Of a DNA stretch of 64,000 bases, positions 37,706 to 51,277 are shown piece after piece. Location of the stretch: positions 2,550,053-2,614,052 of the forward strand of contig CAWFKI010000005.1 in the NCBI GenBank assembly GCA_963816345.1, given 5' to 3'. The translations under genes and the position numbers were made by a program. This DNA comes from an uncultured Bacteroidales bacterium. Its GTDB lineage: Bacteria; Bacteroidota; Bacteroidia; Bacteroidales; VadinHA17. The number at the start of each line of letters is the position of its first letter. The stretch's first letter is position 1. The notes under the pieces are model-generated. The model saw only the letters and a program-made list of their open reading frames with translations. It did no database searches and had not been told where the DNA came from.

Positions 37706-37757
37706 CATGCTGATTTGCCAACCGCCTCCGGGGGTGTGGAAAATGATACTTTCTTCA

Positions 37758-37812
37758 CCTTTGTGTTGTCCTTTGTGATCCTTTGTGTTTAACCTTTGTG
37801 TTTAACCTTTGT
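37758..37812. repeat. Tandem CCTTTGTG-core repeats (periods 10-13 nt)
   Basis: CCTTTGTGTTGT CCTTTGTGAT CCTTTGTGTTTAA CCTTTGTGTTTAA CCTTTGTA. A related block occurs at 44394-44440. Confidence 0.85.
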
Positions 37813-37885: not shown

Positions 37886-37893
37886 TATCTTTG
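37886..37893 (+). promoter_or_regulatory. Bacteroidetes-type -7 box (TAtcTTTG) for the his operon leader
   Basis: TAnnTTTG match ending 19 nt upstream of the leader ATG at 37912. Confidence 0.55.
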
Positions 37894-37911
37894 CATTTAC
37901 AAATTAAAGAA

Positions 37912-37971
37912 ATGAACCACATTACATCACATCATCATTTTTCAGATGCTTGCCTTCAGGCGAGGAGATAA
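37912..37971 (+). CDS. his operon leader peptide MNHITSHHHFSDACLQARR
   Basis: 19-codon ORF with 4 His codons, three of them consecutive (37930-37938). It is followed by an intrinsic terminator and then hisG. Confidence 0.6.
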   Translation: MNHITSHHHFSDACLQARR

Positions 37972-37998
37972 TGATATGTGAATATATTAAGATATCAT

Positions 37999-38030
37999 AA
38001 ACCCGTCTGAACAGATCAGGCGGGTTTTTT
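37999..38030 (+). terminator. Intrinsic terminator of the his attenuator
   Basis: 12-bp stem AAACCCGTCTGA/TCAGGCGGGTTT (one G-U), loop ACAGA, T6 run. TCAGGCG at 37955-37961, inside the leader ORF 3' end, duplicates part of the 3' arm and can pair with CGTCTGA at 38004-38010. Confidence 0.75.
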
Positions 38031-38072
38031 AATTTCCTGCCGGGCCTGTTCAGACACAAAAGCTGATGAAAA

Positions 38073-44459: not shown

Positions 44460-45053
44460 ATGGAAATTGATTTTAATAAAGGAAACGGACTTGTACCGGT
44501 AGTCATCCAGGACAGCAGCACCCTGCAGGTTCTGATGGTCGGATATATGAATCAGGAGGCTCTTGAAAAGACCACCGTCGAAAACAGGGTGACTTTCTTC
44601 AGCAGGAGTAAGAACCGCTTATGGACCAAGGGAGAGACTTCCGGAAATTTTCTTTATGTTGAGACGATTCAGCCCGATTGCGATAATGACGCTATCCTGA
44701 TCAAAGTAAGACCCACCGGACCGGTTTGTCATACAGGCAGCACTTCCTGTTTTGCGGAGGAGACTGCAAAGGGATTTATATACCAGCTGGAACAGATTAT
44801 CAACCAGCGCATTGAAGATAACGTTGCTGACTCATACACAAATAAGCTCTACAGGAAAGGCATTAACAAGGTAGCTCAGAAAGTCGGTGAAGAGGCAGTC
44901 GAATTAATTATTGAGGCAAAGGATGATAATATTGAGCTCTTCAGAAATGAATCGGCCGACCTTTTATATCACCTGCTTATATTACTGAAATCCAGGGGCA
45001 CAGATCTTAAGAGCATTGAGGAGGTCCTGAAGGAACGGCACAATGCCCGCTAA
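44460..45053 (+). CDS. hisIE: Bifunctional phosphoribosyl-AMP cyclohydrolase / phosphoribosyl-ATP pyrophosphatase
   Basis: 197 aa. HisI motifs (WTKGETSG, DCDNDA, CHTGS.SCF) followed by the HisE helical domain (EEA.E...A..., ADLLYHLL). Confidence 0.93.
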   Translation: MEIDFNKGNGLVPVVIQDSSTLQVLMVGYMNQEALEKTTVENRVTFFSRSKNRLWTKGETSGNFLYVETIQPDCDNDAILIKVRPTGPVCHTGSTSCFAEETAKGFIYQLEQIINQRIEDNVADSYTNKLYRKGINKVAQKVGEEAVELIIEAKDDNIELFRNESADLLYHLLILLKSRGTDLKSIEEVLKERHNAR

Positions 45054-45153
45054 GCGAAGTCTCCGCTAAGCGAAGTCCCGCTAAGCGAAGTCTCCAGACT
45101 TCGCTTTATCTATTTAATCCTGCCCCGCTAAGCGAAGTCTCCAGACTTCGCTT
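45047..45153. repeat. CCGCTAAGCGAAGTCT direct repeats ending in two copies of the palindrome AAGCGAAGTCTCCAGACTTCGCTT
   Basis: Three tandem 15-16-nt units start inside the last hisIE codons; the gene's TAA is the TAA of the first unit. Perfect palindromes lie at 45083-45106 and 45130-45153. They probably also act as the his operon terminator hairpins. Confidence 0.85.
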
Positions 45154-45233
45154 CATATATATCACAGAATTCATAATTTTAACAGGATCATTAGTTTTTA
45201 AACATTTTTGTTTGTTATTTCAAAAGAAATAAA

Positions 45234-45241
45234 TACTTTTG
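45234..45241 (+). promoter_or_regulatory. Bacteroidetes-type -7 box (TActTTTG) for the aromatic operon leader
   Basis: TAnnTTTG match ending 21 nt upstream of the leader ATG at 45262. Confidence 0.55.
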
Positions 45242-45261
45242 TAACCCAATAAGGCAGTCAA

Positions 45262-45327
45262 ATGAATATTGTGTACAAATATTTTATCTCCTTTTTCTAC
45301 TTCTATTTTTACTTTAAAAACAGATAA
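45262..45327 (+). CDS. Aromatic (Phe/Tyr) leader peptide MNIVYKYFISFFYFYFYFKNR
   Basis: 21-codon ORF in which 6 codons are Phe and 5 are Tyr. It is followed by an intrinsic terminator 13 nt before pheA. Confidence 0.7.
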   Translation: MNIVYKYFISFFYFYFYFKNR

Positions 45328-45367
45328 GGGGATTTTTGTATACAGATATAATTAATTTATATGAAAC

Positions 45368-45400
45368 AAGGGTCCCGCAAAGGGGCCCTTATTTGTTTTT
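45368..45400 (+). terminator. Intrinsic terminator of the Phe/Tyr attenuator
   Basis: 9-bp stem AAGGGTCCC/GGGGCCCTT (one G-U), loop GCAAA, followed by ATTTGTTTTT. Confidence 0.7.
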
Positions 45401-45412
45401 AAAACATTTAAG

Positions 45413-46243
45413 ATGAAGGTATCGATACAGGGAGAAGCTGGAAGTTTTCATGAAGTTGCGGCAAGGCAGTACTTCAGCTATGATGAGGTTGAAATTGTTC
45501 CATGCCCGACATTTGATCTCACTCTGAACACACTCAAAGCCGGAGAATCAGATTTTGCCGTTATGGCAATAGAGAATGCCCGCTCGGGAAGCATTCTTTA
45601 TAACTACACACTCATAAGGGAATCAGGGCTGAAGATCCTCGGAGAACACAATCTCAGGATAAAGCAGAACCTTATGGCGCTTCCCGGACAGCTTATCACC
45701 GATATCAGGGAGATAAGGTCCCACCCGATAGCCCTGGCCCAGTGCATGACATTTCTGAATCAGTTTCCCGGCATGACCCTTATTGAAAGCGACGATACGG
45801 CAGGAAGTGCAAAACAGATCAGCGAGAATCAGCTGAAAGGAGTGGCAGCCATAGCATCCGTTGCATCTGCTGAAATATATGGTCTTGATATACTTGCCGA
45901 AGGCATTGAGACATACAAACAAAATTATACCAGGTTTCACATAATCGGAAGTGAAGATAAGGGGAATACGAAAGGGAACAAGGTATCCATCTGTTTTTCA
46001 ACGGGTCATAAGCCCGGATCACTGGCAAAAGTTCTGGTCAAGCTTGCGGAACTGGAGATAAACCTCTCTAAGATTCAATCGGTTCCAAGGCTCAACGGTG
46101 AGTGGGAATATATGTTCTATCTCGACCTGGAGCTGAACAAGAATACAAAATCAGAGGTAATAAAAAGGGTACTGAATAACCACACAAGCAACCTTGAGAT
46201 ACTTGGTGTATATTTTAAAGGAGACATGCTATATGAAAGTTAA
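45413..46243 (+). CDS. pheA: Prephenate dehydratase (PDT + ACT domains)
   Basis: 276 aa. Motifs: IQGEAGSFHE, an ESDDTAGSA variant of the TRF-region, and a C-terminal ACT domain (KVSICFSTGHKPGSLAKVL). Confidence 0.9.
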   Translation: MKVSIQGEAGSFHEVAARQYFSYDEVEIVPCPTFDLTLNTLKAGESDFAVMAIENARSGSILYNYTLIRESGLKILGEHNLRIKQNLMALPGQLITDIREIRSHPIALAQCMTFLNQFPGMTLIESDDTAGSAKQISENQLKGVAAIASVASAEIYGLDILAEGIETYKQNYTRFHIIGSEDKGNTKGNKVSICFSTGHKPGSLAKVLVKLAELEINLSKIQSVPRLNGEWEYMFYLDLELNKNTKSEVIKRVLNNHTSNLEILGVYFKGDMLYES

Positions 46244-47420
46244 ACCGGCTGACCGTACAGGCAATGTACAGGAATACTATTTTTCGCAAAAACTTGCCCA
46301 GATAGACAGGATGCGGAAAGAAGGAGCTGACGTCATTAATCTGGGAATCGGCAGCCCCGACCAGGCTCCATCGGAAAGCACCATCGCGGCCCTGACTGCT
46401 TATGCAGGAAAACCGACATCACATGGCTATCAGAGTTATACAGGAGTATATGCCCTCAGAAAGGCATTTGCTGAGTGGTATAAGAAATACTTTCATGTTG
46501 ATCTTAACCCCGAGAATGAGATACTACCTTTAATGGGCAGTAAGGAGGGAATAATGCATGTCAGCATGGCGTTTGTAAATCCGGGCGATGAGGTGCTGAT
46601 ACCCGATCCCGGATATCCCACCTACTCATCTGTTACAAATCTTGTCGGGGGTATTCCGAGGAAATACGACCTGACGGAGGAGAATGGCTGGCTTCCCGAT
46701 CTCGAAGCCCTTGAAAACAGCGACCTGAGCAGGGTCAAGGTGATGTGGGTAAACTATCCCAACATGCCTACCGGGACCAAAGGATCAGTGCAGCTCTTCG
46801 AAAAGCTTGTATCATTTTCAATGAAACATGGAATACTACTTTGCAATGACAATCCTTACAGCTTCATTTTAAATAAGGATTATCACAGTATTCTTCAGGT
46901 TGATGGCGCCATGGAAACAGCCCTGGAGATGAATTCGCTTAGTAAATCACAGAATATGGCAGGCTGGCGCATAGGAATGGTGGCAGGCCACAGAGAGTAT
47001 ATAAAGGAGGTGCTGAAAGTAAAAAGCAATATGGACTCAGGCATGTTCCTGCCGATGCAGATGGCTGCTGTTGAAGCGCTTAACAACCCTGACTCATGGT
47101 ATGACCAGGTAAATGAAGTATATATTAAACGGAGGAAGAGAGTTGAAGAAATAATGGACCTGCTTAAATGCAGGTATGACAAAAGCCAGGCCGGATTGTT
47201 TGTCTGGGGGCGAATACCGGATAATATCAGGAGCTGCGAGGATTTCACTTCGGAAATACTTGAAAAATCACATGTATTTATCACACCAGGGTTTATCTTT
47301 GGGAAAAATGGCGAAAGATATATCCGCATCTCACTCTGCGCTACAGAGGAAAGACTGACGGAGGCGCGGGAGAGGATTATATCAATAGATTCCCCTCCCT
47401 GGAGGGGGGGTGGGTTCTAG
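46233..47420 (+). CDS. Class I/II PLP-dependent aminotransferase (probable aromatic/prephenate aminotransferase)
   Basis: Start at ATG 46233 (MKVKPADR), overlapping the pheA 3' end. Motifs: NPNNPTG-like region and SLSKSQNMAGWRIG (PLP lysine). The last roughly 9 codons (SPPWRGGGF*) are encoded by a copy of the intergenic repeat. Confidence 0.85.
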   Translation: MKVKPADRTGNVQEYYFSQKLAQIDRMRKEGADVINLGIGSPDQAPSESTIAALTAYAGKPTSHGYQSYTGVYALRKAFAEWYKKYFHVDLNPENEILPLMGSKEGIMHVSMAFVNPGDEVLIPDPGYPTYSSVTNLVGGIPRKYDLTEENGWLPDLEALENSDLSRVKVMWVNYPNMPTGTKGSVQLFEKLVSFSMKHGILLCNDNPYSFILNKDYHSILQVDGAMETALEMNSLSKSQNMAGWRIGMVAGHREYIKEVLKVKSNMDSGMFLPMQMAAVEALNNPDSWYDQVNEVYIKRRKRVEEIMDLLKCRYDKSQAGLFVWGRIPDNIRSCEDFTSEILEKSHVFITPGFIFGKNGERYIRISLCATEERLTEARERIISIDSPPWRGGGF

Positions 47421-47741
47421 GAAGAAGCACAGGGCTCAGGGCACGGGGCTCAGGCATTGCCAGCCGTAGCTTTCTTCGACCTCCGTAGCTTTAGCGGAGG
47501 AGGTAGCGAAGGCTGGGCACAGAGCAGTAAGCAGTACTTCAGCAGGATCCCCTCCTGGGAGGGGGCAGGGGTGGGTTCCAGGAAGGGGCACAGGGCACAG
47601 AGCACAGAGCACAGGCATTGCCAGCTGTAGCTTTCTTCGACCTCCGTAGCTTTAGCGGAGGAGGTAGCGGAGGCTGGGCACAGAGCAGTAAGCAGTACTT
47701 CAGCAGGATCCCCTCCTGGGAGGGGCAGGGGTGGGTTTAAA
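47391..47741. repeat. Tandem duplication of a roughly 160-bp composite unit (partial + 2 full copies)
   Basis: Units at about 47421-47581 and 47582-47741 are near-identical. Each contains (GCACAGG)4, a nested hairpin region CCAGCC...CCTCCG TAGCTTTAG CGGAGG...GGCTGG, GCAGTAAGCAGTACTTCAGC, and CCCCTCCTGGGAGGGG(G)CAGGGGTGGGTT. The terminal motif also occurs at 47391-47420. Confidence 0.9.
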
Positions 47742-47782: not shown

Positions 47783-48628
47783 ATGACAATTGCAGTTATT
47801 GGAGTAGGGCTCATAGGCGGATCGCTTGTAGTGGATCTCCGCAAGAGGAAATTTGCAGACAGGATTATCGGAGTGGACAGTAATATCCATCACCAGAATA
47901 TTGCTCTACTCTGCGGACTTGTGGATGAGAATGACACCCTGGAAAACGCTGTTGAAAAAAGCGATCTTATCATTCTTTCAACTCCTGTGAATACAAACTC
48001 TGCGATGTTGCCCGGGATACTCGATATGATTGCCGGCACCTCGAAAGTGGTGACTGATATGGGCTCCACAAAAGCAAGCATTGCCAGGGCTTCGGTTAAC
48101 CATCCTGCAAGAGGTCGCTATGTTGCAGTCCACCCTATGGCCGGAACAGAATATTCCGGACCTCTGGCTGCCATTGGAAAACTTTTTGATTATAAGAACG
48201 CCATTATATGTGACCGGGAGCTCAGCGATCCTGATGCCCTTGAACTTGTCGAGAAAATGCTCGATACTCTTAATATGCATAAAGTGTACATGAGCTCAAG
48301 CGACCACGATGTTCATGTGGCCTATATTTCACATATTTCCCACATTACATCTTTCTCACTCGCCCTCTGTGTTCTGGATAAGGAGAATGAAGAAGGGAAT
48401 ATCCTTACACTTGCCGGTGGTGGTTTCGAAAGTACCGTACGGCTTGCAAAGAGCAACGGAGATACCTGGGCGCCTATCTTCGTGGAAAACTCCGAATTCA
48501 TCCTCGAAGTAATGGATACATATATAGATAAAATGAATTCCTTCAGAAAGATGATAACCGATAAGGATGTCAGCGGTTTGAAATCCCTTATGGAAGAGGC
48601 AAATAAGATAAGGAAGATATTGAATTAA
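47783..48628 (+). CDS. tyrA: Prephenate dehydrogenase
   Basis: 281 aa. Rossmann motif IAVIGVGLIGGS plus HPMAG and SHDVHVAYISHISH motifs. Confidence 0.88.
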   Translation: MTIAVIGVGLIGGSLVVDLRKRKFADRIIGVDSNIHHQNIALLCGLVDENDTLENAVEKSDLIILSTPVNTNSAMLPGILDMIAGTSKVVTDMGSTKASIARASVNHPARGRYVAVHPMAGTEYSGPLAAIGKLFDYKNAIICDRELSDPDALELVEKMLDTLNMHKVYMSSSDHDVHVAYISHISHITSFSLALCVLDKENEEGNILTLAGGGFESTVRLAKSNGDTWAPIFVENSEFILEVMDTYIDKMNSFRKMITDKDVSGLKSLMEEANKIRKILN

Positions 48629-48643
48629 TAATAAATATTAATT

Positions 48644-49759
48644 ATGGAAGTCAAACTTGAGAATCCACTCATAAAAGACTGGAGAGGTTATAAAGGGCGG
48701 CCTTTTTTAATTTCAGGTCCGTGCAGTGCAGAAACAGAGGAGCAGGTAATGGAGACCGCCAGGAAACTGGCTGAGATAAAAGAGGTCAGTGTGTTTCGCT
48801 CCGGGATATGGAAACCAAGGACCCGCCCCAACTCCTTCGAAGGTGTCGGAAGCGAGGGACTGAAATGGCTTCGCAGGGTCAAACAGGAAACAGGGTTGCT
48901 CGTCGGAACAGAGGTAGCCAATGAAAAGCATGTGTATGAAGCGCTTAAATATGGTATCGACCTGCTGTGGATCGGCGCCAGGACCTCCGTTAATCCGTTT
49001 ACAGTACAGGAGATCTCCGATGCCCTTCAGGGCGTGGACGTTATGGTACTGGTGAAAAATCCGATCAACCCTGATATCGAATTATGGATAGGCGCCATAG
49101 AGCGTGTTGCCAGGGCAGGGATAACAAGGATAGGAGCTATTCACCGCGGATTCTCCTCTTACGAAAAAACCCTGTACAGGAACCAGCCTAACTGGCAGCT
49201 GCCTATTGAACTCCGCAGGCGTATCCCCGACCTTCCCATAATCTGCGACCCGAGTCATATTGCCGGTGCAAGGCAATATCTTCATGAGATCTCCCAGAAA
49301 GCCATGGATCTTAACTTCGACGGATTAATGCTTGAGTCGCATATAAATCCTGCAAAAGCCCTGAGCGATGCCGCTCAACAGATTACACCAAACGATCTGA
49401 AAGAGCTTCTGAGCAGGCTTATCCTCCGGAGTCCGGACACTTCCGATCCGAAATTACTGGATGTCCTTGGGGAACTGAGGCAGCAGATCGATGTCTATGA
49501 TGATCATCTTCTTGATCTGATGGAAAAAAGAATGAAGGTGGCCGAAACGATCGGACTCTATAAAAAGGAAAATAATATCACTATATTGCAGAGCCTGCGA
49601 TGGGATGAAATTATAAGCAAAGCAATAATCAAAGGCAAGGCAAAAGGCCTCAGTTCTGAACTTATAGATACCATTTTCAAAGCTATACACCAGGAATCAA
49701 TAAACCATCAGATCAGAGTCATGAATAATGGAGTGAAAGATCCTGAAAAGAAAAAATAA
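48644..49759 (+). CDS. Bifunctional type I-beta DAHP synthase / chorismate mutase (type II, C-terminal)
   Basis: 371 aa. The DAHPS/KDSA-family barrel (GPCS.E, KPRT.P.SFEG, DPSH) is followed by an AroQ-type CM domain (LRQQIDVYDDHLLDLMEKRMKVAETIGLYK). Confidence 0.88.
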   Translation: MEVKLENPLIKDWRGYKGRPFLISGPCSAETEEQVMETARKLAEIKEVSVFRSGIWKPRTRPNSFEGVGSEGLKWLRRVKQETGLLVGTEVANEKHVYEALKYGIDLLWIGARTSVNPFTVQEISDALQGVDVMVLVKNPINPDIELWIGAIERVARAGITRIGAIHRGFSSYEKTLYRNQPNWQLPIELRRRIPDLPIICDPSHIAGARQYLHEISQKAMDLNFDGLMLESHINPAKALSDAAQQITPNDLKELLSRLILRSPDTSDPKLLDVLGELRQQIDVYDDHLLDLMEKRMKVAETIGLYKKENNITILQSLRWDEIISKAIIKGKAKGLSSELIDTIFKAIHQESINHQIRVMNNGVKDPEKKK

Positions 49760-49775
49760 ATTAATCAGCGAATCA

Positions 49776-50990
49776 ATGGAAAGATGTGTAGTACCCTCCG
49801 GACTTAAGGGCCGGATTAAAGCCCCGGCATCAAAGAGTATGACACAGCGAGCCATAGCCGCTGCCCTTCTGGCTGAGGGACAAAGCACTATATACAATCC
49901 CTCCTATTGTGACGATTCGCTGGCTGCAATGAGTGTAGCGTGCGGACTTGGTGCAAGAGTTGAGCCAATGCCGGATGAAATGAAAATTTTTGGCTCAGCC
50001 ATTCTTAAGGAGCCAAAACTGAACTGCGGGGAATCCGGCCTGGCGATAAGGATGTTCTCCCCTATTGCAGCCCTCTACCCGGCTGAGATTACAATGGTTG
50101 GAGCTAACTCTCTTAAAAAAAGGCCCATGGATATGATCGGAAAGGCCCTCGTTCAGCTGGGAGTTAAATTCACAAGCAGCGGAGGTTTTCTTCCGCTTAC
50201 AATCCAGGGACCACTTAAAGGCGGATCATGCGAAATTGACGGCTCTGTGAGCAGCCAGCTGCTGACGGGTCTGCTGATGGCATTGCCTCTGGCACAGGAA
50301 GACTCTGAGATAAAGGTTAAGAACCTGAAGAGCAAGCCTTATATAGACATGACCATCCAGCTGCTCAGGTCGTTCGGGATCTCTGTCAACAGTACAGGTT
50401 ACGACCTGTTTAAAATCCCGGGGAATCAGAAATATAAAGCTCAGGAATACACTGTGGAAAGTGACTGGAGCGGCGGAGCATTCCTGCTTATTGCCGGCGC
50501 CATAAACGGACATTTAGATATAACCGGTCTGCGGAGAGACAGCAGACAGAGCGATAGATCAGTATTGAACGCCCTGGAAAAAGCAGGCGCATCAGTAAAT
50601 ATAAGGGAAGATGGCATTGGGATCTCCGTATCTGAATTAAAAGCCTTTGAATTTGATGCGACCGAATCACCTGACCTCTTCCCTCCTCTTGTGGCACTGG
50701 CGGCCTATTGCAGGGGCACCTCGACAATAAAGGGAGTATCAAGGCTTATTTACAAGGAGAGCGACAGGGCAGCATCACTTCGGGAAGAGTTCGCTAAGAT
50801 GAATATCGGAATAGAGGTCGACGGCGATATCATGAAAGTGACAGGCGGTCGGCCCGGAGGAGCACATGTGGAATCGCACGACGACCATCGTATTGCAATG
50901 GCAGTTGCAGTAGCTGCGCTCGGAGCATCAGGCAATGTCTGTATCAGGGATTCTCAATGTGTTGCAAAATCTTATCCCGGGATTTTTTGA
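49776..50990 (+). CDS. aroA: 3-phosphoshikimate 1-carboxyvinyltransferase (EPSP synthase), C-terminus truncated by a frame change in a T6 run
   Basis: 404 aa with EPSPS motifs (KSMTQRA, SSQLLTGLLMA, DHRIAMA). The ORF ends ...KSYPGIF* at the T6 run 50983-50988. The +1 frame continues DDLRSLGATVIE* to 51027, which is the normal EPSPS ending. Confidence 0.9.
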   Translation: MERCVVPSGLKGRIKAPASKSMTQRAIAAALLAEGQSTIYNPSYCDDSLAAMSVACGLGARVEPMPDEMKIFGSAILKEPKLNCGESGLAIRMFSPIAALYPAEITMVGANSLKKRPMDMIGKALVQLGVKFTSSGGFLPLTIQGPLKGGSCEIDGSVSSQLLTGLLMALPLAQEDSEIKVKNLKSKPYIDMTIQLLRSFGISVNSTGYDLFKIPGNQKYKAQEYTVESDWSGGAFLLIAGAINGHLDITGLRRDSRQSDRSVLNALEKAGASVNIREDGIGISVSELKAFEFDATESPDLFPPLVALAAYCRGTSTIKGVSRLIYKESDRAASLREEFAKMNIGIEVDGDIMKVTGGRPGGAHVESHDDHRIAMAVAVAALGASGNVCIRDSQCVAKSYPGIF

Positions 50991-51073: not shown

Positions 51074-51081
51074 TATTTTTG
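51074..51081 (+). promoter_or_regulatory. Bacteroidetes-type -7 box (TAttTTTG) for the trp leader / trpB2
   Basis: TAnnTTTG match ending 32 nt upstream of the leader ATG at 51113. Confidence 0.5.
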
Positions 51082-51112
51082 TGTAACGGCTGCAATCAGC
51101 AGAGTAATAATT

Positions 51113-51175
51113 ATGAAAGTAAAAATGTTTAATATCTGGTCCTGGCGCAACTTAAGCGATTATGCTGTGAAATAA
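51113..51175 (+). CDS. Trp leader peptide MKVKMFNIWSWRNLSDYAVK
   Basis: 20-codon ORF with two TGG codons two positions apart (51137-51139 and 51143-51145). Its 3' end is complementary to part of the downstream terminator. Confidence 0.65.
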   Translation: MKVKMFNIWSWRNLSDYAVK

Positions 51176-51209
51176 GCCGTTATATAACATTTAAATGATA
51201 TTTATCTAT

Positions 51210-51239
51210 AAAGGCACGCTTTTCACAGCGTGCCTTTTT
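51210..51239 (+). terminator. Intrinsic terminator of the Trp attenuator
   Basis: 11-bp perfect stem AAAGGCACGCT/AGCGTGCCTTT, loop TTTCAC, T run. GCTGTGAAA at 51164-51172 (end of the leader ORF) is a perfect complement of TTTCACAGC at 51221-51229, giving an antiterminator. Confidence 0.8.
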
Positions 51240-51277
51240 AATTTTGCATTTTCAATCAACCATCAAAACTAAATAAA

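Follow-up and report, generated by a model that had tools for sequence, protein, structure and literature searches.

In the window, by which we mean the whole 64,000-nucleotide stretch of DNA analysed here, an operon for aromatic amino-acid biosynthesis lies between hisIE on its upstream side and a trpB-like gene on its downstream side (both from NCBIfam scans). It begins with pheA (prephenate dehydratase; 45413-46243; NF008865, E = 2e-61), the first of the genes that we consider to be regulated, and continues with a class I/II aminotransferase (46194-47420; NCBIfam scan), tyrA (prephenate dehydrogenase; 47783-48628; NF006307, 317.6 bits, cut-off 295), a DAHP synthase fused to chorismate mutase (48644-49759; NCBIfam scan) and aroA (EPSP synthase; 49776-50990; TIGR01356, 366 bits, cut-off 287). 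These genes, and all of the elements of the promoter and leader described below, are on the + strand. The scans confirm the gene order pheA-aminotransferase-tyrA-DAHPS/CM-aroA that was proposed in the initial annotation. The exact start of the aminotransferase is uncertain: its longest open reading frame has a TTG start and shares 50 nt with the 3' end of pheA (46194-46243), and as the matches to families set in at residue 14-19, translation probably begins further downstream; in relatives this gene also comes directly after pheA. The 362-nt spacer between the aminotransferase and tyrA, within what is presumed to be a single operon, contains two tandem G+C-rich units of 161 nt that are 92% identical (47407-47728); in relatives the spacer ranges from about 40 to 520 nt.

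Immediately 5' of pheA there is a short leader that the initial annotation had laid out as a promoter box, a 21-codon ORF, a 9-bp terminator with a T tail, and then pheA itself; each of these elements is found where it had been placed. The -7 box, TACTTTTG (45234-45241), has the form TAnnTTTG, and 19 nt 5' of it we read from the sequence a candidate -33 element, TTTG (45211-45214), of a Bacteroidota-type promoter, of which the TTG is kept in the alignment of relatives. TAnnTTTG is present within 60 nt 5' of the leader ATG in 83/88 related loci; in 61 of those, the G of the box is 20 nt from the ATG. The start site mapped for the pheA leader of Flavobacterium psychrophilum suggests, by analogy, that transcription begins near 45247. 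A Shine-Dalgarno sequence is absent before the leader ATG, as is usual for Bacteroidota, and initiation at this ATG is a prediction.

The leader ORF (45262-45327; 21 codons plus stop) translates to MNIVYKYFISFFYFYFYFKNR, in which 6 Phe and 5 Tyr residues account for 11 of the 21 codons. Eight of these, codons 11-18 (45292-45315), form an unbroken FFYFYFYF run that is the predicted ribosome stall site. When 45054-45412 was shuffled 5000 times with dinucleotide composition preserved, an F/Y run of at least five in a short ATG-initiated ORF arose at a frequency of 0.0012, and a run of at least seven was never obtained (0/5000); the latter result places the Phe/Tyr run beyond chance, and indicates that it is not a by-product of a T-rich spacer.

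Proteins of uncultured Bacteroidales share 86-100% identity with the PheA of the window. A scan of one genome per species yielded 80 loci with PheA 73-91% identical, from which we left out three in which the contig ends too near pheA; the leader is present in 77/77 of the species-level relatives with sufficient upstream sequence. These 77 genomes encode 65 distinct leader peptides with 27% Phe and 22.5% Tyr (~49.5% for the two together); 60/77 leaders have an unbroken F/Y run of 8, and every one of them has at least two Tyr residues. The leader ATG is invariant, and there is an in-frame stop in all leaders scanned. Among the 76 distinct sequences, codon position 1 of the run is an almost invariant T (entropy 0.07), at position 2 the changes are essentially all between T and A, i.e., between Phe and Tyr, and at position 3 between T and C. 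The run thus varies within TTY/TAY codons only, which argues for selection on Phe and Tyr codons, and not on U-rich RNA. Within the run, Phe and Tyr are freely interchanged at positions 11, 12 and 15 from one relative to another; 68/76 sequences have Tyr at position 13, and 74/76 at position 17. We also noted a sub-lineage (L077, L079, L090, L092, L096 and L098) that has a Trp codon, and in some members also Cys, within the aromatic run (e.g., MNSIHKNFNLSYCFWFYFKNR); the leader run of F. psychrophilum similarly ends with Trp.

Structure prediction, a check that the initial annotation had suggested, returns the terminator, a hairpin that we name A, and an antiterminator. The free leader folds into hairpin A, a small A/U hairpin B (45346-45362) and the terminator (z = -2.9 relative to shuffles). 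The 5' arm of hairpin A, region 1, lies inside the leader ORF (45270-45279 and 45286-45293); the 3' arm, region 2 (45326-45333 and 45335-45344), begins inside the stop codon (UAA, 45325-45327) and spans the next 17 nt. Hairpin A consequently joins codons 3-11 to the stop codon and the 17 nt that follow it, with the Phe/Tyr run as its loop. Region 2 is the most conserved non-coding stretch of the leader, with several invariant columns, and its core (45329-45339) doubles as the 5' arm of the antiterminator. The intrinsic terminator (45368-45400) comprises a stem (45368-45376 with 45382-45390) of nine pairs, six of them G-C, a GCAAA loop and a T-rich tail (45391-45400), read as ATTTGTTTTT in the terminator scan; the energy of the hairpin is -16.3 kcal/mol.

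The antiterminator emerges if the transcript is truncated at 45381 and so lacks the 3' arm of the terminator: its minimum-energy fold then contains a 2:3 helix of 11 pairs, three consecutive ones being G:U, in which GGGAUUUUUGU (45329-45339) is paired with ACAAGGGUCCC (region 3, 45366-45376) and hairpin B is enclosed. Masking of region 1, to mimic a ribosome at Phe-11, makes a helix containing 2:3 the minimum-energy fold even at full length. Since 2:3 shares the 3' arm of hairpin A and, through region 3, the 5' arm of the terminator, the 1:2, 2:3 and 3:4 helices are mutually exclusive. This layout supplies the switch that the initial annotation had left open. That annotation had also proposed a GGGG:TCCC contact as a weak antiterminator; the contact stands, as the core of the 11-bp 2:3 helix, but "weak" does not describe a helix that is the minimum-energy fold of the nascent leader and recurs in the predictions for 75/77 relatives. 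A different switch had been considered by eye, in which ACAGAUAAGGG (45320-45330) pairs with CCCUUAUUUGU (45386-45396) and thereby sequesters arm 4. That pairing does show up within a long helix when region 1 is masked; we rejected it as the switch because the tail after CCCTT is variable in relatives and because arm 4 is made after arm 3.

With naive footprint masks, the outer stem of hairpin A could still form around a ribosome stalled late in the run; for folding across the relatives these masks were replaced by the removal of all sequence 5' of the ribosome. The terminator is predicted in 77/77 free leaders and 1:2 pairing in 75/77. Removal of region 1 from a transcript that does not yet include arm 4 gives a 2:3 helix of at least 8 bp in 75/77; a ribosome placed at the stop codon leaves the terminator as the prediction in 76/77. 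If region 1 is removed and the fold is allowed to reach equilibrium, the terminator beats the antiterminator in 65/77, so the switch needs co-transcriptional (kinetic) control, as do other attenuators. Standard pairs occupy 97% of cells for 2:3, 88% and 85% for the two 1:2 stems, and 95.6% for the terminator (76 distinct sequences); hairpin B is poorly aligned in relatives, and 58% of its cells are paired in a fixed register. In the 77-sequence alignment, covariation was counted for 1:2 plus terminator and for 2:3, and in neither case does it rise above shuffle controls, as both arms are nearly invariant in this close set. RNAalifold, applied to the close-relative alignment, recovered the terminator as its sole helix, and neither 1:2 nor 2:3.

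Alternative structures and an extremely conserved non-coding part are also what would be expected of a translation-independent RNA switch, such as a riboswitch, a T-box-like element or a protein- or tRNA-binding leader, to which the ORF would be incidental, as one feature of a U-rich structured RNA. We consider such a switch exceedingly improbable: variation in the run is exactly in frame, restricted to TTY/TAY with position 1 fixed; the ATG is invariant and the stop is in frame; the Phe/Tyr richness of the peptide is retained in clades with other nucleotide sequence (see below); and no Rfam riboswitch, T-box or other family is matched. At Rfam gathering thresholds there is no match anywhere in the window, and neither T-box nor riboswitch families are among the matches to 45050-45450 up to E = 10. 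The Phe_leader family (RF01859) scores 22.1 bits (E = 0.21) against a gathering score of 55. The type of pheA leader found in the window has no Rfam family.

A second alternative gives the ORF a life of its own, as a gene for a small aromatic peptide with a function, followed by an ordinary terminator, with pheA on a separate promoter. Residues outside the run (MNIVYKY... and ...KNR) are indeed fairly conserved; however, the codons for the N-terminal residues are the 5' arm of hairpin A, and those for Lys, Asn and Arg form an A-rich segment beside region 2. Moreover, the ~12-13 nt between the terminator tail and the pheA ATG leave no room for a promoter, and across clades the element is tied to pheA-aminotransferase-tyrA operons. 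We give this proposal hardly any weight.

Control might instead be exerted mainly on translation or on mRNA stability, with the hairpin occluding the pheA start codon. Bacteroidota rely on unstructured A/U-rich start regions, and the stem of the terminator ends just 22 nt 5' of the pheA ATG, both of which are compatible with such an arrangement. Nevertheless, 77/77 relatives, and other clades too, have a G+C-rich stem with a conserved T tract behind it, the signature of an intrinsic terminator. Furthermore, in L059 an insertion of ~120 nt parts the hairpin from pheA, and the leader is still intact; in F. psychrophilum, there is a discrete 5' transcript with conditional read-through (PMC9723704). 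Control of this kind is, in our estimation, very unlikely. In L059 (2230-2500 of that locus), where leader and terminator are both intact, the insertion lies between terminator and pheA, and it has hairpin potential of its own.

For more distant lineages, metagenomes were scanned with a 65%-identical PheA as the seed; this yielded 39 loci, 13 of them with F/Y(/W)-rich leaders. In L104 (PheA 45% identical) the leader peptide is MQTKSFTGRYFYYFYPMKFSCRE, and in L118 (PheA 44% identical) it is MNLFRHNFTFYYFFYFKRI; L118 belongs to a marine clade, other leaders of which include MKFFNYNFDFYYFFYFKRK and MLFFNYNFNFYYFFYLKRM, and in which the gene order is aldehyde dehydrogenase, leader, pheA-aminotransferase-tyrA. 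The 1:2 helix of this clade is CUACAA...UUGUAG, with the run in its loop. Directly after the stop codon UAG, L118 and L120-L127 have GAGGCUGU, GAGACCGU or GGGACUGU as the pairing partner of AUGGUCUC (in L126, region 3 is AUAGUCUC in place of AUGGUCUC), and the terminator has the form GGUCUCGA....UCGAGACU. Thus region 2 adjoins the stop codon, as it does in the window. Between the GGGAU:GUCCC of the window clade and the GAGAC:GUCUC of the marine clade, one pair has changed from G:C to A:U. The antiterminator pairing in L104 is GUCGGGA with UCCCGAC. We also folded the published pheA 5' region of F. psychrophilum (PMC9723704), in which GGGAUUGU..UAUAU pairs with AUAUACAAUCCC; an equivalent of the enclosed hairpin B is predicted both there and in the marine clade. 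As judged from these predicted pairings, the marine clade and the F. psychrophilum pheA leader show an identical logic in other sequences. L111, a locus that we leave unclassified, has a weak leader candidate, MENHTAFYGYYHNKHK.

Another observation that bears on the antiterminator is that, when regions 2 and 3 were exchanged among ten representatives, of which few are truly independent lineages, the cognate partner came first for the most divergent ones (F. psychrophilum, L052, L118 and L104). Relative to shuffled versions of region 2, the duplex energies gave a mean z of -3.9.

For the leader of the F. psychrophilum pheA-aspC3 genes, Guerin et al. 2021 (ISME Commun, PMC9723704, Table S7, Supplementary D9) have an entry as a 'leader peptide attenuation element' for 'phenylalanine biosynthesis', with transcriptomics that showed conditional read-through; they gave no antiterminator model. 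It is most likely homologous to the leader in the window and its closest relative, to judge from several shared features: the phylum, the position 5' of pheA-aminotransferase, a short ORF with tandem aromatic codons (MNTNNTFYSNNSFYFYWNIGRDCYMVI, with FYFYW), a terminator, a GGGAUU..UUGU-type region 2 that is complementary to the 5' arm of the terminator, and a small enclosed hairpin. There are also differences: its 27-codon ORF runs through region 2, whereas the ORF in the window stops before that region; its run is shorter and includes Trp; and its 2:3 helix lacks the UUU:GGG wobble block that is present in the window. Our literature search found no further description of such a pheA leader beyond the F. 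psychrophilum report. A transcriptome paper on B. thetaiotaomicron describes leader-like small ORFs in general terms only.

Bearing in mind the frame-specific conservation of the ORF, the terminator in 77/77 relatives, the TAnnTTTG box at a fixed distance and the antiterminator in 75/77, we put at about 85% the probability that the leader is, as the initial annotation had supposed, a ribosome-mediated (leader-peptide) transcription attenuator of the pheA-aminotransferase-tyrA-DAHPS/CM-aroA operon, with the mechanism that our in silico analysis describes. Translation of the leader, stalling of the ribosome and actual termination are steps that we infer. Transcription would start just 3' of the TAnnTTTG box, and the 21-codon leader would be translated as RNA polymerase proceeds. 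With Phe-tRNA and Tyr-tRNA plentiful, the ribosome would reach the UAA at 45325-45327 and cover region 2 (45326-45344), which, after release of the ribosome, would pair back to region 1 (45270-45293). In either event, region 2 covered or 1:2 formed, region 3 would be left to pair with region 4 as the terminator (45368-45390 plus the U tail), and transcription would end ~12-13 nt before pheA. With charged tRNA scarce, the ribosome is predicted to stall in FFYFYFYF (45292-45315) and to cover region 1; the exposed region 2 would then pair with region 3 (45329-45339 with 45366-45376) once the latter emerges, the 5' arm of the terminator would be sequestered, and polymerase would enter pheA.

This kind of attenuator is classical and ordinary, and current understanding of attenuation is unchanged by it. 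It resembles pheL-pheA of E. coli (RF01859) in having an ORF with cognate codons, 1:2, 2:3 and 3:4 helices and an intrinsic terminator just before pheA; the RF01859 score, below gathering, shows no homology of sequence or structure between the two. E. coli pheL uses Phe codons exclusively, and pheA is the one gene that it controls; in contrast, the Phe and Tyr codons of the window precede genes for both branches and for the common pathway, and they follow a Bacteroidota-type promoter without a Shine-Dalgarno sequence. Leader-type elements have already been recognised in Bacteroidota in the form of the Bacteroid-trp leader (RF01692; Weinberg et al. 2010, PMC2864571). That element is alike in being of the leader-peptide type and in serving amino-acid biosynthesis operons of this phylum, but it has Trp codons and lies 5' of the trp operon; neither the pheA leader nor any other part of the window matches RF01692. 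Our analysis adds modestly to this, with an antiterminator that is made explicit, with the range over which the family occurs, and with the observation that Rfam has no model of it. Vitreschak and colleagues, in an abstract of 2004 (FEMS Microbiol Lett 234:357), reportedly mention attenuators in Bacteroidetes/Chlorobi.

Sensing of Tyr as well as Phe is putative. The initial annotation held that a leader with mixed Phe and Tyr codons fits an operon with both pheA and tyrA, and the distribution of the leader agrees with this. The leader is found at every pheA-aminotransferase-tyrA locus with sufficient upstream sequence and is missing from loci in which pheA has no such partners, the exception being a single pheA-only lineage: in L078/L086, a trpB-like gene follows pheA, the leader is retained, and the run (NYFFFFPF) is richer in Phe. 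That Tyr codons accompany tyrA fits these loci, as far as sequence comparison can tell, with L078/L086 as the single contrasting lineage. A leader is absent from L081-L085, L087, L088 and L091, where neither the aminotransferase nor tyrA is found downstream within the fetched flank; in these loci (the clade of protein P0121) pheA lies 20-46 nt after a gene ending ...DWISEYILHN, and has moved to another operon. A leader is likewise absent from the distant loci L106-L110, L112-L117 and L119, in which pheA stands alone.

The same attenuator might nonetheless sense Phe only, the Tyr codons being tolerated neighbours that add little or nothing. TTY and TAY codons are one base apart, and U/A-rich codons of either kind would keep the loop of hairpin A unstructured; the free interchange of Phe and Tyr at positions 11, 12 and 15 agrees with that view. 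So does a precedent from C. glutamicum: the aroR leader 5' of aroF responds to Phe limitation and not to the availability of Tyr, as far as the summary of Neshat et al. 2014 in PMC11802643 goes. On that account aroR is alike in having mixed codons (Phe-Tyr-Phe) before a shikimate-pathway operon, and differs in having three regulatory codons only, in belonging to another phylum and in its unrelated sequence; Tyr sensing is, in view of this precedent, not assured for the leader in the window. Set against a Phe-only sensor are the retention of Tyr at positions 13 and 17 and of at least two Tyr residues per leader, the recurrence of the Phe/Tyr mix in three sequence-divergent clades, all with operons that include tyrA, and the Phe-richer run of the sole lineage without tyrA after pheA. 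We judge sensing of Phe only to be possible, if somewhat doubtful.

A leader can combine codons for more than one end product when a pathway is branched, as in the multivalent thr (Thr and Ile) and ilvGMEDA (Ile, Leu and Val) attenuators of E. coli, which differ from the present case in amino acids, organisms and sequences. We entertain, tentatively and at a little short of even odds, a two-input attenuator in which the Tyr codons would contribute beside the Phe codons, such that starvation for either Phe or Tyr opens the operon, and which would stand for an RNA family that extends across the phylum Bacteroidota (Bacteroidales, marine relatives and Flavobacterium) and has neither an Rfam model nor a published switching model. 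If this reading is true, a single leader integrates the charging of two tRNAs through interleaved Phe and Tyr codons, and the operon that it opens comprises both terminal branches together with the entry and common steps of the pathway. The attenuator that we propose would account for a coupling of Phe/Tyr biosynthesis to tRNA charging in uncultured Bacteroidales, and apparently in much of Bacteroidota; it also supplies an antiterminator model for the Flavobacterium pheA leader, which previously had none, and such leaders could enter annotation pipelines and Rfam.

The his, phe/tyr and trpB-like genes of this one region are each preceded by a leader ORF and a terminator. Before hisG (38073), the stretch 37887-38031 contains a TAnnTTTG box, TATCTTTG (37887-37894), a short His-rich leader ORF (37912-37971) that encodes MNHITSHHHFSDACLQARR, and a strong terminator hairpin (~38000-38031). 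MNHITSHHHFSDACLQARR resembles the published his leader of F. psychrophilum, MSLNQLHHHHFHICSQAKC (PMC9723704). The upstream region of hisG folds with z = -5.7, and in Rfam it comes closest to His_leader, with 27 bits where the threshold is 49; 37887-38031 is probably a His attenuator. Before the trpB-like gene (51278), we find in 51075-51240 a TAnnTTTG-like box, TATTTTTG, an ORF (51113-51175) that encodes MKVKMFNIWSWRNLSDYAVK and has two Trp codons, and a terminator hairpin (51211-51240). This stretch has no match to Bacteroid-trp, and Trp_leader scores 18 bits against a threshold of 41; it probably serves the TrpB-like enzyme as a Trp leader.

Two further sets of repeats are associated with the his genes. 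Just 5' of the his promoter region, at 37749-37802, there are three degenerate copies of a 19-nt unit with CCTTTGTG(TT). On the 3' side of hisIE, 45046-45160 contains three copies of CCCGCTAAGCGAAGTCTCC..., two of which form palindromic hairpins of the same sequence, AAGCGAAGTCTCCAGACTTCGCTT (at 45083-45106 and at 45130-45153), with a terminator-like score for the first; the stretch resembles a his-operon terminator that has been duplicated, or else a small repeat element.
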